Positions 1-6,544 of a stretch of 44,842 nt of DNA are shown piece after piece; position 1 is the stretch's first letter; each line of letters starts with the position of its first letter. Under the pieces are notes generated by a model. The model made no database searches. It was not told where the DNA came from and worked only from the letters and a program-made list of their open reading frames with translations. A program made the position numbers and the translations under genes. The stretch is from an uncultured Candidatus Berkelbacteria bacterium (GTDB lineage Bacteria > Patescibacteriota > UBA1384 > UBA12157): the NCBI GenBank assembly GCA_903877885.1, contig CAIRFN010000012.1:1-44842 (forward strand), read 5' to 3'.

Positions 1-38
1 AATTAGAGTAATTTTTGTTACAATAAACTCAAGTTAAA

Positions 39-222
39 TTATTGAGAATTTTCTTCAAAAATAGTTCGAGCCTTAAAGAGAACACACCACCATTTTTCAT
101 TTTTACTGTTTTCTGCCCCTTTGCCCTCGCTTTCAGCTCGGGCATAATCGGGCAAGTTCCAGAGTAAATCATACGGTTTAGGGAAATCCAGTTGCAGTTT
201 CTTGTCCAATAAAATACGGTTC
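39..222 (-). pseudogene. Detached alternative 3' end of the serine recombinase gene (...KNEKWWCVLFKARTIFEENSQ*)
   Basis: Read in the recombinase frame, the left IR arm continues 15 sense codons beyond TGG TGG to a TAA at 41..39. Confidence 0.7.
87..222. repeat. Left arm of a perfect 136-bp inverted repeat (reverse complement of 1781..1916)
   Basis: Base-by-base comparison: CCACCATTTTTCAT...AAAATACGGTTC is the exact reverse complement of GAACCGTATTTT...ATGAAAAATGGTGG. Confidence 0.97.
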
Positions 223-407
223 CTGAGTGATAGCGAAGTAAATCTGGGAATATATTAAAATATTCCACACAATATATTTCCAGATTTTGAGCCGACGGTT
301 CTCTTGCCCTGAGGCAAGCTTGGCGAGATTTCCATTGTCGGTGGCGAAGAATAAGAAAGCATTTGATTACCAATAAAATATAAAGTTCGACGAACGAGGA
401 GGGGTTT

Positions 408-1922
408 ATGCTAAAATATTTCATCTACTGCAGAAAGTCGTCCGAGGAGGAAGAACGACAGATTTTATCAATAGAAGCCCAGCTCCAAGAGTTGCGGGAC
501 TACGCTAAACAAAACGACCTTCTGGTCATGAAGGAGTTTACCGAAAGTAGAACCGCCAAGGAGCCTGGGCGACCGATTTTCAATCAAATGCTTTCGGAAA
601 TGGAAAAAGGCAACGCTTCGGGAATTTTGGCATGGAATCCCGATCGACTAGCCAGAAACAGCATTGACGGAGGTAAGGTCATCTATCTAGTCGATGAGGG
701 CAAAATTCAAGCTTTGAAATTTCCGACCTTTTGGTTTGACACTACCCCTCAAGGAAAGTTCATGCTAAGCGTTGCCTTTGGTCAAGCCAAGTATTACACC
801 GACAATTTGAGAGAAAACATTTTGCGAGGAATCAGGCAAAAGTTAAGGCGTGGTCAATTACCGGCAAAAGCTCCGGTCGGATACTTCAATGAACCAAGGT
901 TGCGCACTATTGAGCCCGACAAAGCAACCTTTAAAAAGATGAAGAAGATTTTGGAGCTTTTTGCCATTGGAAACCACACCTTAACTCAAATCCGAGACGA
1001 AATGTTTTCTCTAGGCTTGGTGAGTAAAACGGGAGAGCCATTGCACTTAGCTTCCCTGCATGGGATTTTATCCAATCCGTTTTACTATGGTATGTTCATG
1101 TTCAAAGGCGAACTCCAACAAGGTTCGCACAAACCAATGATTTCCAAGAAACTTTTTGACAAAATTCAATCAGCTCTCTACAACAACGGCAAGCCTCGCA
1201 AAAAGAAAATTAAAGAAGAACTCATTTTTAAAAACTTTGCTGTTTGTGGAATATGCGGATACAAAATAACTGGGGAAAGGCATATCAAAAAAAGTGGCTT
1301 GGTCTTTACCTATTATCGTTGCACGAAAAAAAGCAAAGTTAAAAAATGTACCAATGCCTTTTTGCCTGAAGCCGGGCTTGCCAATCAAATTACCAATGCT
1401 TGTCAAAAAGTTTCCATTCCCGACGAGTGGAGAGACAAATATCTCGAAAGAATATCGGAGTGGGAACAAGAACAACACAACTCGTCGGGAATATTCGCTC
1501 AAAATCTGAAAGACAAACTTACCGAAATAAAAAATAAGATAGATCGTTTGTCTGACGGCTATCTGGAAGGAGCTTTCGAGCTCAAGGAATATCATGATAT
1601 TAAAAACACATTCCTTGCAGAGAAGAAAGGTCTGGAGGAAAAGTTAGACGATTTTGAGCGAAAAGGAAATCATTGGCTCGAACTCTTAAAAAGTTGGATA
1701 ATTGACGCCAACCAAGCAGGAAATCTCGCTAATACAAAAAATTTCCTCGCGATGAGAAATTTTTTGAGAACCGTCGGCTCGAACCGTATTTTATTGGACA
1801 AGAAACTGCAACTGGATTTCCCTAAACCGTATGATTTACTCTGGAACTTGCCCGATTATGCCCGAGCTGAAAGCGAGGGCAAAGGGGCAGAAAACAGTAA
1901 AAATGAAAAATGGTGGACCTGA
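408..1922 (+). CDS. Large serine recombinase (resolvase catalytic + recombinase + Zn-ribbon/coiled-coil)
   Basis: YCRKSS catalytic motif, DRLARN, APVGY, CGICG...YYRC...C zinc ribbon; GAGGAGG RBS; last codons overlap the tRNA 3' end. Confidence 0.95.
   Translation: MLKYFIYCRKSSEEEERQILSIEAQLQELRDYAKQNDLLVMKEFTESRTAKEPGRPIFNQMLSEMEKGNASGILAWNPDRLARNSIDGGKVIYLVDEGKIQALKFPTFWFDTTPQGKFMLSVAFGQAKYYTDNLRENILRGIRQKLRRGQLPAKAPVGYFNEPRLRTIEPDKATFKKMKKILELFAIGNHTLTQIRDEMFSLGLVSKTGEPLHLASLHGILSNPFYYGMFMFKGELQQGSHKPMISKKLFDKIQSALYNNGKPRKKKIKEELIFKNFAVCGICGYKITGERHIKKSGLVFTYYRCTKKSKVKKCTNAFLPEAGLANQITNACQKVSIPDEWRDKYLERISEWEQEQHNSSGIFAQNLKDKLTEIKNKIDRLSDGYLEGAFELKEYHDIKNTFLAEKKGLEEKLDDFERKGNHWLELLKSWIIDANQAGNLANTKNFLAMRNFLRTVGSNRILLDKKLQLDFPKPYDLLWNLPDYARAESEGKGAENSKNEKWWT
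1781..1916. repeat. Right arm of the 136-bp inverted repeat (3' part of recombinase gene plus last 6 nt of tRNA)
   Basis: Exact reverse complement of 87..222. Confidence 0.97.
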
Positions 1923-1987
1923 GGAGATTCGAACTCCTGACCTTCTGCGTGCCACGCAGACGCTCTAACCAGCTGAGCTACAGGCCC
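1911..1987 (-). tRNA. tRNA-Ala(GGC), CCA encoded
   Basis: GGGCCTGTAGCTCAGCTGGTTAGAGCGTCTGCGTGGCACGCAGAAGGTCAGGAGTTCGAATCTCCTCAGGTCCACCA; cloverleaf, G3:U70 Ala identity pair, A73. Confidence 0.97.
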
Positions 1988-2009
1988 TCAATGTTTTATC
2001 GATAATATT

Positions 2010-2057
2010 ATTCTAGCATAAAACCGCGTTGCTTTCAAGCAGTAAAAGTTGTACAAT
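2010..2057. promoter_or_regulatory. Overlapping divergent sigma70-type promoters for tRNA-Ala (-) and leuS (+)
   Basis: Minus: TTGAAA-N17-TAGAAT (2038..2010); plus: TTGCTT-N17-TACAAT (2029..2057). Confidence 0.65.
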
Positions 2058-2104
2058 TAATCTGTAAAGTTAAATCTAATTCAGATTAAAAAAGATAGGA
2101 TCAT

Positions 2105-5100
2105 ATGAAAGACTACGATTTTAAGGCGATTGAGGCTAAGTGGCAGAAATATTGGACTGATACAAATTACGGCATTGCCGAGGATTTTTCTGATAAACCT
2201 AAATTTTACTCCTTGATTGAATTTCCATATCCTTCCGGATCAGGCCTTCATGTTGGTCACTGTATGATGTACTCGGCTGCTGATGCCCATGCTCGAATGA
2301 TGCGGATGAAAGGTTACAATCTGATGTTTCCGATGGGCTGGGACGCTTTTGGCCTGCCAACAGAAAATTATGCGATCAAAAATAAAGTTAAACCTCAAAT
2401 TGTCACCGAACAATCGGTTAAAACTTTCAAAAAACAACAGCAATCGATTGGTTATTCTTTTGACTGGTCGCGCGAAATAAATACCACTGATCCAAACTAT
2501 TACAAATGGACTCAATGGATTTTCTTGCAATTTTACAAACATGCGGTTGTTGATGGAAAATTAATCGAAGTTACTGATGATGATACCACAACTCCTCGAC
2601 TTGCTTTTCAATCTGAAATGCCGGTTAACTGGTGTCCTTCTTGTAAAATTGTTTTAGCCAATGAAGAAGTGATCAATAATAATTGTGAGCGTTGTGGTGC
2701 GGGAAGCCAAAAACGCAAACAAAAACAGTGGATGCTTCGGATCACCGATTACGCCGACCGTCTGATTAAAGATTTGGGCACAGTCGATTATTTGGATAAA
2801 ATCAAAACCCAGCAAATCAATTGGATTGGTAAAAGCGTTGGAAGCAATATACAATTCAAAATTCAGAATTCAGAATTAAAAATTAATGTCTTTACGACTC
2901 GGGCTGATACCTTGTTTGGCTGTACCTATATTGTGATTGCACCGGAAAGTGATTATATTGCAATGGTCAAAGATCAGGTATCAAATATCAAAGAAGTCGA
3001 AGAATATATTAAAAAAGCAAAATCCAAATCTGATATTGATCGAACTGATGCTGATAAAGACAAAACCGGCGTAAAACTGGAAGGCATAAAAGCGATTAAT
3101 CCAATCAATGATGAAGAAGTTGATGTTTATGTTGCGGATTATGTTCTCGCCTCTTACGGCACTGGCGCAGTTATGGCTGTGCCTGCTCACGACGACCGCG
3201 ATTTTGCCTTTGCCAAGAAATATGGGATAGAGATTAAACAAGTTATCAATGAAAAGATTGCCACGTCGCTGTCAGCTCCTCGCAATGACGATAATCAGGC
3301 CTTTACCGATTACGGAGTTTTAGTTAACTCTGGCGAATTTAGTGGCTTAACCTCTGAAGAAGCTAAAACGAAAATTACTGAAAAATTAAAGAAAGATGAT
3401 TTAGGCGATTTCACTACTAACTTTAAATTGCGTGATTGGATTTTCTCGCGCCAACATTATTGGGGCGAGCCAATTCCGATTATTCATTGCGACAAATGTG
3501 GCATTGTCCCTGTTCCAGTCGATCAATTGCCGGTTACTTTGCCAGATGTGGAAAATTACGAACCAACCGATACTGGCGAATCGCCACTCGCCAAAATCGA
3601 TTCTTGGGTCAATGTGAAATGTCCGAAATGTAATTCTGACGCCCATCGCGAAACCGACACTATGCCAAACTGGGCCGGTTCCAGTTGGTATTTCTTAAGG
3701 TATTGCGATCCCAAAAACGATCAGTTCTTTACAAAACCCACCTTTTTCCAACCAGAAATAGAAGTAACCGAAAAAGATAAGAAATATATTGAAGAATTTA
3801 AAGCCATTTACACTGATTTAGACCAAAAAGGAATCAAAACTTGGGCTGCGAATCGATTTATGCTCAACGGCATTAATCGAAAAGTCTGGCTACCACTTCG
3901 AACAATTTCAGTCATGGGTTCTCTTAAAGATTTACCAGTTGTTGAAAAATATGTAATTGATAATAATTACAAATTAGAAACAGTCTATCCATACGGTAAG
4001 CTTTTCATTAAAGATGATATCCGATTTGAATATGTCACTTTCGAAGAAAAAGATGGAAAGCTAATCTCCTTTTCAGAAAAGGGTGCTATTCAAGAAATGT
4101 CAAAAAATGATTTACCGGAATTTCCGCTAGGTGTTATTGATGATTTCCATTATCGAGTTTGTTCACCAGAATATAATTTAAAACATTATAAATTTATTTC
4201 TAAAAATGAATCAGAAACTCGCCAAGGTTTGGGCGATGAAGAAAAAATTAAATTCTTAGAAGAATGGCTAGAAGCAAATAATAGCAAGCGATTATACTGG
4301 ACGCCGGTGGATTTGTATAATGGTGGGCCAGAGCATATTACTTTACACCTTCTTTATTCTCGTTTTTGGCATAAATTCTTGTACGATTTAGGTGTAGTAC
4401 CGACACTTGAGCCTTATCAAAAAAGAATTCAACATGGAATTATTTTAGGGCCAGACGGTCAAAAAATGAGTAAGTCCAAAGGCAATGTGGTTAATCCAGA
4501 CGAAATGGTAGAAAAATTTGGCGCAGACACACTTCGCGCTTATATGATGTTTATCGGGCCATACGATCAAGAGTCTGCCTGGAATAATGCCGGAATTATG
4601 GGTGTTCACCGTTTCTTAAAACGCGTAGTCGCCAACTCCGAAAAGGTAAATGTTACTAAGGATACGAACGACGTCTTAGTAAAATTGAATCAAACAGTCG
4701 CTGGCGTAACTGATGATTTGGAAAATTTTCAGATGAATACGGTTATTTCTAAATTAATGGAATTAAATAATCTGTTTGAAAAACAAGAAAAAATTAGCAC
4801 TGAATCATTTAAAACATTCTTGCAAATTCTTTATACGGCTTGTCCGCATATTGCTTCGGAACTTTGGTCTGAAATCGATAATACTGTTTCGATCGAACAA
4901 ACGGCTTGGCCAGTTGCCGATGAAAAGTATCTATTAACCGATGAAGTTGATATTGCTGTCCAAATTAACGGCAAAACCAGACAAATCATTAAAATCAAGC
5001 AAAATGCCAGCCAAGAAGAGGCGGAAAATTTAGCTAAGGCTGACACAAAAATCAGTGAGTTATTAAATGGCCAAAATATCAAGAAAACTGTCTATGTTAC

Positions 5101-5405: not shown

Positions 5406-5856
5406 ACATCTTTCTCGCGTCATTATCATGCAAACGTTGTACGAGTGGGACTTTCGCCCAGATTGTAACATCGACGATATTAAGCAACGCAATATTGATA
5501 ATTACGAAGAAGATGCTGACGCTGATTTTATTGATCAAACTATCAAAGGCGTAATTGCAAATTGCAAAGAAGCCGACGAATTGATTATGAAAGCTGCGCC
5601 AGAATGGCCGCTTGAACAAATTTCTACTGTCGACAAAACAATTCTTCGAATTGCTGTTTATGAAATTCTACATTCCGAAGAAGTCCCACCAAAAGTGGCC
5701 ATCAACGAAGCGGTTGAACTTGGTAAAACTTTTGGCTCGGAAAATTCCAGCAAATTTATTAACGGAGTGCTCGGCACCATTTATCGAAATTCTGCTAAAT
5801 ACAATGCCGAAGAAGATAAAAAAGTGATTGAGGAGGCTGCTAATGAATCCGCCTAA
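5398..5856 (+). CDS. nusB: Transcription antitermination factor NusB
   Basis: RHLSR, LRIAVYE, PPKVAINEAVELGKTFG, FINGVL. Confidence 0.97.
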   Translation: MNRHLSRVIIMQTLYEWDFRPDCNIDDIKQRNIDNYEEDADADFIDQTIKGVIANCKEADELIMKAAPEWPLEQISTVDKTILRIAVYEILHSEEVPPKVAINEAVELGKTFGSENSSKFINGVLGTIYRNSAKYNAEEDKKVIEEAANESA

Positions 5857-6544
5857 CCTTGAAATGCTCTTGGAATTTACCAAAAAAATTGGGGTAAAAT
5901 TCAATGATAATGATCTCTTGAATCAAGTTTTTGTGCACCGCTCATATTTGAACGAAAATCCTGGTTTTAAACTAGACCATAACGAACGCTTGGAATTTTT
6001 AGGCGATGCGGTTTTGGAATTAGTTGTGACCGAAAATTTATATCGAAATTTACCAAACCCAGAGGGCGAACTCACTAATCTCCGTTCAGCTCTAGTTCGT
6101 GGTCAAACTTTGTCTGATATTGCCAGTAAACTTGGCATGAATGATTATTTGTTTCTTTCTCGCGGTGAAGCCAAATCTGAAGGTAAAGCCCGCCAACTAA
6201 TTTTAGCTAACGCTTTTGAAGCTTTGATTGGCGGAATTTATTTAGATCAAGGTTATGACGCAGCTAAAAAATTTATTGAAGAAAATATTTTGGGTCGTTT
6301 AAAATCTGTCATTGAACAAAAAACATATTTAGATCCAAAAAGCCATTTGCAAGAATTGGCTCAAGCTGAACAGAGTATCACTCCAACCTATAAAGTCATG
6401 GAAGAATCTGGCCCAGACCACGCCAAAAAATTCATTGTCGGTTGTTTCTTGTTTGACCAACAAATTGGTGAGGGTTCAGGTAGCTCCAAGCAAACCGCTG
6501 AATCTGCCGCGGCAGCTGATGCCCTTTCTCACTGGACTAAATAG
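5843..6544 (+). CDS. rnc: Ribonuclease III
   Basis: NERLEFLGDAVL signature, dsRBD (DPKSHLQE...GPDH); start moved to ATG after GAGGAGG. Confidence 0.97.
   Translation: MNPPNLEMLLEFTKKIGVKFNDNDLLNQVFVHRSYLNENPGFKLDHNERLEFLGDAVLELVVTENLYRNLPNPEGELTNLRSALVRGQTLSDIASKLGMNDYLFLSRGEAKSEGKARQLILANAFEALIGGIYLDQGYDAAKKFIEENILGRLKSVIEQKTYLDPKSHLQELAQAEQSITPTYKVMEESGPDHAKKFIVGCFLFDQQIGEGSGSSKQTAESAAAADALSHWTK

Follow-up and report, generated by a model that had tools for sequence, protein, structure and literature searches.

Why should a serine recombinase gene that runs head-on into a tRNA gene lie between two perfectly matching inverted arms, and does the segment between these arms ever turn over? The question is raised by the left end of a 44,842-nucleotide stretch of DNA from an uncultured Candidatus Berkelbacteria bacterium. 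This stretch, hereafter the window, is the entire contig C12 of genome G000, an assembly of 1.0 Mb in 13 contigs that is 99% complete. An earlier reading of the letters, which we call the sequence-only reading, proposed a self-inverting ON/OFF switch with two alternative C-termini and no other cargo, and offered as an alternative an inverted intact attachment site (attP) left by an unusual integration. Our own answer, which we hold with considerable confidence, is that a small mobile element has inserted at the 3′ end of a tRNA-Ala(GGC) gene, that its integrase end forms the left end of the window, and that it carries a spare, inverted attP.

The repeat, the tRNA gene and the recombinase

An inverted-repeat search identified positions 87-222 as the exact reverse complement of 1781-1916, a match of 136 nucleotides at 100% identity whose arms are separated by 1558 nucleotides. 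The second-best inverted pair in positions 1-4000 has just 27 nucleotides at 74% identity, therefore a chance origin of the 136-nucleotide repeat is excluded. An intact tRNA-Ala(GGC) gene, found with both ARAGORN and Rfam, shares its final six bases, CCACCA (1911-1916), with the outer edge of the right arm, and the same hexamer opens the left arm. The recombinase open reading frame (ORF) terminates with ...NEKWWT* (the asterisk marks the stop) within the tRNA gene. In these respects the sequence-only reading described the locus correctly: the repeat is borne out by the repeat search and by reads from three samples, both arms do end in the tRNA 3′ end, and the frame does run head-on into the tRNA. 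The features discussed below are as follows.

1-86, minus strand: outer flank X; from 86 to 39 the minus strand encodes the native 15-amino-acid tail CVLFKARTIFEENSQ* of the recombinase; homologous to the flank of locus L029
1-86, plus strand: the same flank as P-type half-site of the putative intact attP, with a T-loop-like GTTCG from base 64, 23 nucleotides before the arm
62-112: putative intact internal attP (P half-site, core, P′ half-site), inverted with respect to the tRNA junction; extent approximate
87-222: outer arm, a spare inverted copy of the final 136 nucleotides of the recombinase gene
87-92: shared core CCACCA in the outer arm, the place where the crossover must lie
223-407, plus strand: region upstream of the recombinase, with a promoter-like site (consensus match) at 227-256
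408-1922, plus strand: large serine recombinase gene, 504 amino acids as assembled, with its WWT* end inside the tRNA gene
1781-1916: inner arm, the genuine 3′ end of the gene, coding for amino acids 459-503
1891-1935: putative attL, made of the tRNA T-arm and acceptor as B-type half-site (GTTCG 18 nucleotides from the arm), the core and the P′ half-site of the gene end; extent approximate
1911-1987, minus strand: tRNA-Ala(GGC), its last six bases supplied by the arm
2010-2038, minus strand: promoter-like site upstream of the tRNA gene, TTGAAA-17-TAGAAT with a TG, a consensus match

The tRNA-Ala gene was the sole find of ARAGORN and Rfam, neither of which recognized a tRNA, or any other RNA already known, in the left flank. 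An Rfam match to a group II intron at 1614-1701 was taken as chance (21 bits against a threshold of 32, E 0.18). A terminator role for the tRNA-side arm was also rejected, as the scan found no terminator-like site there.

Is the repeat an artefact of assembly?

A fold-back or chimera at the contig end could produce such a repeat, and two details would suit it: the 136-nucleotide arm falls just under the 141-nucleotide overlaps between contigs of this bin, and the left arm lies just 86 nucleotides inside a contig end with which no other contig of the bin overlaps. The read evidence consists of Logan contigs (k=31) from runs X1-X3, which are three lake-water samples of one study. A single unitig covering 193-1810 spans both inner junctions, 222/223 and 1780/1781, in these runs. 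The arm forms a unitig of its own with depth 52/29/42 (X1/X2/X3), against 25/13-26/14 for the inner part, and the depth on the tRNA side is 21, 14 and 15. The twofold depth of the arm and the presence of both inner junctions in the reads imply that the repeat is truly present twice per genome. Furthermore, the same layout occurs at 122 other loci from many assemblers and studies. We therefore reject an assembly artefact, which is extremely improbable.

The sequence-only reading had suggested that reads across the arms be used both to check the junctions and to count orientations. The inner junctions were recovered; orientation is unreadable from k=31 contigs, because an inversion alters no junction shorter than the arm.

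The left-arm flank occurs in two versions: that of the window, which resembles the flank of L029, and that found at a junction on contig C9 (about 72215-72290; see below), which is the one carried by X1-X3. In these runs positions 1-77 of the window have a depth of 0, and the arm is joined there to the other version, with the letters AGTTCGAGCCCCAGC before base 78. Mixed strains, an exchange of modules or a tip present in a minority may account for the two versions. A peat run, X5, yielded diverged relatives only.

The same layout in related loci

Relatives made up 519 of 600 candidates from species-representative genomes and 487 of 594 from metagenome contigs, and the best 80 of each were kept. 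Together with the window and the homologue in genome G007, and after removal of four duplicates, these give 158 non-redundant loci. A locus was considered judgeable if at least 200 nucleotides upstream and the 3′ end of the gene were present, and a repeat was counted from a length of at least 40 nucleotides.

The repeat flanks the gene in 107 of the 120 judgeable loci and in 15 of the 38 others, so the inverted copy of the gene's 3′ end that the sequence-only reading proposed to look for upstream of homologous genes is indeed there. The 122 repeats are well matched, with 56 at 100% identity, 94 at 97% or more and seven below 90%; those that are uncut measure 45-233 nucleotides (median 124). 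The targets are diverse, and include tRNA-Ala (three anticodons), Gln, Gly, Asn, Ser, Pro, Leu, Glu and Val. The closest homologue within the order, that of G007 (45% identity), is situated at a tRNA-Pro gene with a 162-nucleotide perfect inverted repeat. This repeat overlaps the tRNA by the same six positions, here CGACCA, and its outer flank encodes ...WSNLLNEVRTFFEQKSSQ*.

The three other large serine recombinase paralogues of G000, on C1, C5 and C11, have no such repeat (3/3), therefore the layout is limited to this recombinase clade. The paralogues themselves (C1 16110-17441, C5 8137-9141 and C11 33609-35048) are 28-35% identical and run head-on to tRNA-Ser, tRNA-Ser and tRNA-Asn, respectively. 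In G011, a genome of the same family, there is no match to the window recombinase at E 1e-20 or better. A phage origin was rejected: a scan of viral contigs returned six relatives, none of them close over the full length.

Attachment sites on either side of the core

How, then, do the two arms differ outside the repeat? Of the 70 head-on loci with both flanks, 64 have the motif GT[TC]C at a distance from the arm that is 5 bp greater in the outer flank than on the tRNA side, and in 52 loci, the window included, the distances are 23 and 18 nucleotides. The stretch resembling a tRNA T-loop that had been noticed in the left flank of the window, the GTTCG from base 64, is this motif. A passage of PMC3783163 on serine integrases describes the zinc-ribbon motif of attB as ‘shifted by 5 bp toward the center’ relative to attP. 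The six-base core, moreover, co-varies with the target tRNA. From the 5-bp offset and the co-variation of the core it follows that the left arm with its flank corresponds to an intact attP (P half, core, P′ half), and the right arm with the tRNA to attL (B half, core, P′ half).

The spare intact attP is, to judge from the related loci, a constant part of the element family. Hence one half of the earlier alternative reading stands, namely that the copy is an inverted intact attP, and the other half, that it was left by an unusual integration, does not.

The recombinase and its exchanged C-terminus

The ORF encodes a serine recombinase, as had been supposed, with Resolvase (PF00239, residues 5-150, E 1.2e-20), Recombinase (PF07508, 177-257) and zinc-ribbon (PF13408, Zn_ribbon_recom, 274-332) domains. 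Residues R9, K10 and S11 are invariant in both alignments, A1 and A2. The nearest solved chains are those of the SPbeta and A118 integrases (9dxh, 4kis; E 3e-6 to 3e-4), to which the alignment extends as far as residue 414-422. In the structural model of the relative P0017 long helices are predicted at 339-386 and 392-443, a candidate coiled-coil region (predicted TM-score, pTM, of 0.40). The family is large, with 5843 proteins at E 1e-40 or better among 8000 scored.

The same reading frame goes on beyond the left arm, in agreement with the sequence-only reading. The minus-strand ORF at 39-209 reads ...NEKWWCVLFKARTIFEENSQ*, and the frame that exits the arm is ...KWWCVLFKARTIFEENSQ*. The tail type RT(I/F)F, whose conservation it was suggested to check, generalizes to RTxF, which is present in the outer-flank frame of 58 of 67 loci; a stop closes the frame in 67 of 67, after a median of 16 residues. 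The arginine of this tail is written by CGA in 30 cases, AGA in 15 and CGG in 13, therefore selection acts on the tail protein and not on a DNA motif alone. The frame beyond the left arm is, as these sequences have it, the conserved native C-terminus of the recombinase.

In an AlphaFold model of P0017, a natural full-length protein, the WW and the tail belong to one C-terminal helix, 491-511, a block with a predicted local distance difference test (pLDDT) score of about 85, within a model that is poor overall (mean pLDDT 65, pTM 0.40). Since WW and tail share this predicted helix, integration would cut it. The truncated gene is kept nevertheless, as 89 of 97 head-on recombinase genes are open.

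The native tail ends 20 of the 120 nearest protein clusters; a regular expression gave 21, but P0109 proved on inspection by eye to be a read-through of a tRNA. Of these native-tail clusters 12 are on contigs of 2.6 kb or less, compared with about 24 of the 100 others, as counted from the table. Among the DNA loci only 2 of 130 closed gene ends carry the native tail. A contig of 2.6 kb or less is roughly the recombinase segment plus both repeats, which is the size expected of an excised circle. One cluster of the native-tail set, P0059, comprises 105 member sequences.

The far end of the element and its cargo

If the window holds attL, where is the other end? On contig C9 of the same genome, at about 72215-72250, a P-type flank with the RTxF tail WWCVLAGARTFFERGGL* is followed by CCACCA and then by unrelated non-element DNA. 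The 30 bases at this junction are identical to those joined to the window arm in X1-X3. By its sequence the C9 junction is attR of the window element, with the core in direct orientation to that of attL.

Next to this putative attR are genes for Replic_Relax, DUF3768 and a reverse transcriptase (RT), and complete relatives carry cargo of 1-6 kb, which contradicts the claim that the recombinase has no other cargo. The RT gene (RVT_1) is repeated at 83-91% identity at C9 75141-75487, C8 1-308 and C4 1302-1594, and it ends C9 inside the cargo; it may belong to a group II intron or a retron-type element. A 363-nucleotide stretch of the cargo, C9 72615-72973, is 81.5% identical to C3 2054-2411, and is possibly a piece of another related element.

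The architecture can be followed from end to end in L076, a complete genome. Here 3628-3897 and 5505-5772 form a second inverted pair, which shares 9 nucleotides with the outer arm (5764-5896) and encloses 1.6 kb of small genes. In the sense of the tRNA the order is: tRNA, core, gene end (inverted), gene body, a middle piece of gene end, core and tail flank, then cargo, tail flank, core and host DNA. The distal junction reads as an ordinary attR, direct to attL, and the middle piece as the inverted intact attP. A second inverted pair of this kind is present in 19 elements, where the cargo spans 1.0-6.0 kb, and complete relatives are 3.5-10 kb long.

In G007 a fuzzy search for the end of tRNA-Pro within 10 kb found no attR, and a second pair was later found by self-BLAST at 6 kb. 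The cargo of that element (L010 3713-4433, L027 822-4720) consists of a helix-turn-helix (HTH) gene followed by ORFs of 569 and 730 amino acids. From motifs identified by eye, these two ORFs resemble a DNA methyltransferase and a helicase-type restriction enzyme.

Two simpler explanations can be weighed at this point. One is that the locus is a cargo-free, domesticated, self-inverting recombinase cassette at a tRNA gene. Within the window it is true that the recombinase stands alone between the arms; however, the putative attR on C9 has cargo, as have the complete relatives, and the family is found at many different tRNA genes, as a mobile element would be. We consider this explanation highly unlikely. 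The other is an insertion sequence with 136-bp terminal inverted repeats and a serine transposase, as suggested by one gene between perfect terminal repeats that runs into the right repeat. This too was rejected and is, in our judgement, barely credible: there is a single copy in the genome with no target duplication, the conserved frame and the attP half-site continue outside the left repeat, and the ends of complete elements, like the end on C9, are direct and not inverted.

A model for the element

The explanation that we prefer is a mobile element with a spare attP. Its large serine recombinase carries attP in its own last codons, and the half of attP past the crossover both imitates the T-arm of a tRNA and encodes the conserved tail of 15-16 amino acids. 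Crossover of this attP with attB, the end of the tRNA gene, at the six shared bases left the tRNA whole and the recombinase gene fused to it (WWT*). The half that codes for the tail was thereby carried to attR, the distal end of the element on C9, and the 15-amino-acid tail was replaced by ‘T*’. A second, intact attP lies inverted just upstream of the recombinase promoter, made of the last 136 nucleotides of the gene, the core and the tail. The 136-nucleotide inverted repeat is the stretch in which this intact copy overlaps the end of the gene beside the tRNA. The other half of this copy pairs with attR in complete relatives, as the second inverted pair around the cargo. We infer that the free form is a circle, in which two unique segments, the recombinase and the cargo, lie between two inverted attP-bearing repeats. 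The identity of the arms would be maintained by recombination or gene conversion between them.

Several observations weigh against this model and should be set beside it. The repeat is absent from 13 of the 120 judgeable relatives. The element has not been closed: C9 ends in the repeated RT gene, C12 starts 86 nucleotides past the arm, and the two do not overlap. The flank at 1-77 of the window matches the C9 copy over 39 nucleotides at just 85%, and is absent from X1-X3. The bin holds no second copy of the C9 flank, hence the second inverted pair is not demonstrated in G000. The two nearest genomes, G010 and G011, provided no empty site, the host protein beside the C9 junction being unmatched in both, and no excised circle was seen as DNA. 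The orientations are also a difficulty, as a bias of 100 to 4 (see below) is unexpected if both attP copies are equal, and would call for selection or the use of a single copy. Finally, no read spans an arm, so that the orientation in the population rests on assembly alone.

Does the segment flip?

A tRNA was called at 104 loci, of which 100 are head-on and four (L031, L051, L072 and L104) are flipped, with the tRNA on the strand of the gene and just upstream of the outer arm. At L044, L054, L096, L161, L164 and L178 ARAGORN reports no tRNA, yet a clear T-arm and acceptor end is present at the junction, therefore the 100 head-on loci are an undercount. The head-on, truncated form is the resting state in assemblies. 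The orientation of the cargo relative to the recombinase is also constant, being the same in 35 of 36 homologous pairs. Given these figures, the ON/OFF switch of the sequence-only reading is not shown.

That said, the arms are not independent of each other. Within a locus the two arms are more alike (median identity 99.2%) than an arm is to its nearest counterpart at another locus (93.3%) in 84 of 96 loci. From this likeness and the ancestral layout it follows that the arms keep recombining. Flipping is possible, and it probably takes place on an evolutionary time-scale. A crossover between the arms would turn the recombinase segment round, restore the 518-amino-acid enzyme and place its gene co-directional with the tRNA and downstream of the tRNA promoter, an outcome that the sequence-only reading had predicted correctly.

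Some of the elements are arranged in tandem arrays, as in L179 (1-7487) and also in L084, L105 and L184. A second related recombinase gene starts near 6285 in L179, and the inverted pair 1745-1862/5886-6003 belongs to this second element; the first, inner recombinase takes a native-type tail from the flank of its neighbour. L179 was considered as a circle, and this was rejected since it has no terminal overlap. The arrays imply that attP has recombined with an already hybrid site.

Could the flip be put to use? One explanation is a switch within the mobile element, in which the recombinase, or RecA acting on the 136-nucleotide arms, flips the segment between a truncated head-on state (off, or of altered directionality) and a full-length co-directional state, and so controls excision. 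Flipped loci do exist (4/104), and two of them have k141 contig names and arms of less than 141 nucleotides. The tail is under selection at the protein level, truncation would cut the predicted helix, the arms evolve in concert, and the native tail ends 20 of the 120 nearest protein clusters. The tandem arrays, too, imply recombination of attP with a hybrid site, the pairing that a flip would need. On the other hand, 100 of 104 loci are head-on, and all three flipped loci that have the repeat stop in the distal arm, while 69 of the 86 head-on loci with the repeat read through. The fixed orientation of the cargo is matched by that of the HTH gene, whose strand is constant in 36 of 37 loci. Serine integrases are reported, in PMC3783163, to be limited to attP with attB, or to attL with attR in the presence of a factor. 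The native-tail proteins may equally well stem from excised circles or tandem arrays, of 130 closed gene ends just two carry a native tail, and in 89 of 97 cases the truncated gene stays open. On balance we find this explanation doubtful, though possible, and we are similarly hesitant about the narrower claim that the flip is a working switch for reactivation or excision.

A more specific form would be self-editing directionality. Here integration would remove the C-terminal helix and lock the element in, and a rare flip would restore the full-length enzyme behind the tRNA promoter and license excision. The flip itself would be carried out by the enzyme on a non-canonical pairing of attP with attL, or by homologous recombination across the perfect arms. 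We offer this proposal tentatively, and think it unlikely.

A further explanation would have the spare attP serve some purpose other than inversion, the segment never flipping in normal life. The site might be bound by the recombinase, as an operator or insulator that separates its gene from the divergent HTH gene; it might also be a second integration site, or one for the exchange of cargo modules. In 37 of 62 loci a small XRE-type HTH gene occurs no more than 1 kb from the outer arm, with the intact copy between it and the recombinase gene, and in 36 it is divergent from the recombinase. Orientation is almost fixed, and the flank varies between populations of the same element (the window as against X1-X3 and C9), as module exchange would give. 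However, a binding site needs about 50 bp and not 300-500 nucleotides of identity, and a role of this kind leaves the open, conserved tail frame of the spare copy unexplained. We regard a role other than inversion as possible without favouring it.

The spare attP lies between HTH and recombinase genes in L035, L037, L040, L042, L073, L078, L085 and others, with the HTH gene 0.1-0.6 kb to the left of the outer arm. In the window element the corresponding region falls in the unassembled gap between C9 and C12.

Relation to known systems

Elements that carry attP inside the integrase gene, so that integration changes or splits its 3′ end, are familiar from the myxophage Mx8 (intP/intX) and from SSV1, both of which use tyrosine recombinases. 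To our knowledge they have no spare inverted copy of the lost end. Recombinase genes tied to inverted repeats that hold their own sites are found in the Hin/Gin/Cin systems and in the yeast 2-micron circle, and both orientations are common in populations of these. Hin, Gin and Cin are small serine recombinases of about 190 amino acids with a C-terminal HTH, 26-bp sites and an enhancer. In the 2-micron circle two unique segments lie between two inverted repeats, and the FLP recombinase that acts on FRT is a tyrosine recombinase. The window enzyme differs from the Hin/Gin invertases in its length of 504 amino acids and its Recombinase and zinc-ribbon domains, and in that one orientation dominates. 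With the 2-micron circle the element would share the layout of two segments and two inverted repeats that we propose for the free form.

The three-domain build is the same as that of the phage-type large serine integrases (A118/LI, SPbeta SprA/YokA, Bxb1 and phiC31), although the sequences are only distantly alike, with low identity (E 3e-6 to 3e-4). In those elements there is one attP, outside the integrase gene; they do not target tRNA ends and use a separate directionality factor. The short sites are shared, as is the 5-bp offset between the attP and attB motifs that PMC3783163 describes.

The closest parallel in layout is provided by the ssrA islands of Dehalococcoides with the large serine recombinase DsiB. 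According to the main text of PMC3146451 (McMurdie et al. 2011), these target the T-loop region of the tmRNA and form tandem arrays, and the authors suggest that dsiB may attain full function only as part of the circle, or next to a neighbouring island from which the 3′ fragment comes. As in the window, the 3′ end of the recombinase gene overlaps attL at the end of a tRNA-like gene. The likeness is one of layout, as described in PMC3146451. Unlike the window, the islands as presented there have a tmRNA target, a host in the Chloroflexi and a six-gene integration module with a small recombinase, DsiA. No second small recombinase was seen in window positions 1-2100 or in the C9 cargo. An inverted internal copy of the attachment site is not described in the main text of PMC3146451, from which the word ‘inverted’ is absent.

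Two inverted serine-integrase attP sites that flank a segment are a feature of engineered, man-made cassettes, MiMIC and similar. Our literature search returned no natural element with an internal inverted attP, only such engineered constructs for cassette exchange. A self-truncating serine integrase that targets tRNA ends is thus known in kind, and it is the constant spare inverted attP and the two-module layout that appear to be new.

Implications

Serine integrases are prized as tools because two short sites suffice and their action is one-directional. In this very large natural family the attachment site has a triple role: it mimics the tRNA arm, codes for the predicted C-terminal helix of the enzyme itself and is present twice within the element, in opposite orientations. 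If the spare copy does flip the segment or re-arm the integrase, this would be a new, factor-free control of directionality and a ready design for reversible genetic memory. Should the self-editing proposal prove true, a large serine integrase would provide, in nature and with no need of a factor, a memory of two states.

The repeats of these elements explain why many Patescibacteria assemblies break at such genes. Even without flipping, the family is apparently a main vehicle by which small cargo, including restriction-modification genes, moves between the tRNA genes of Patescibacteria.

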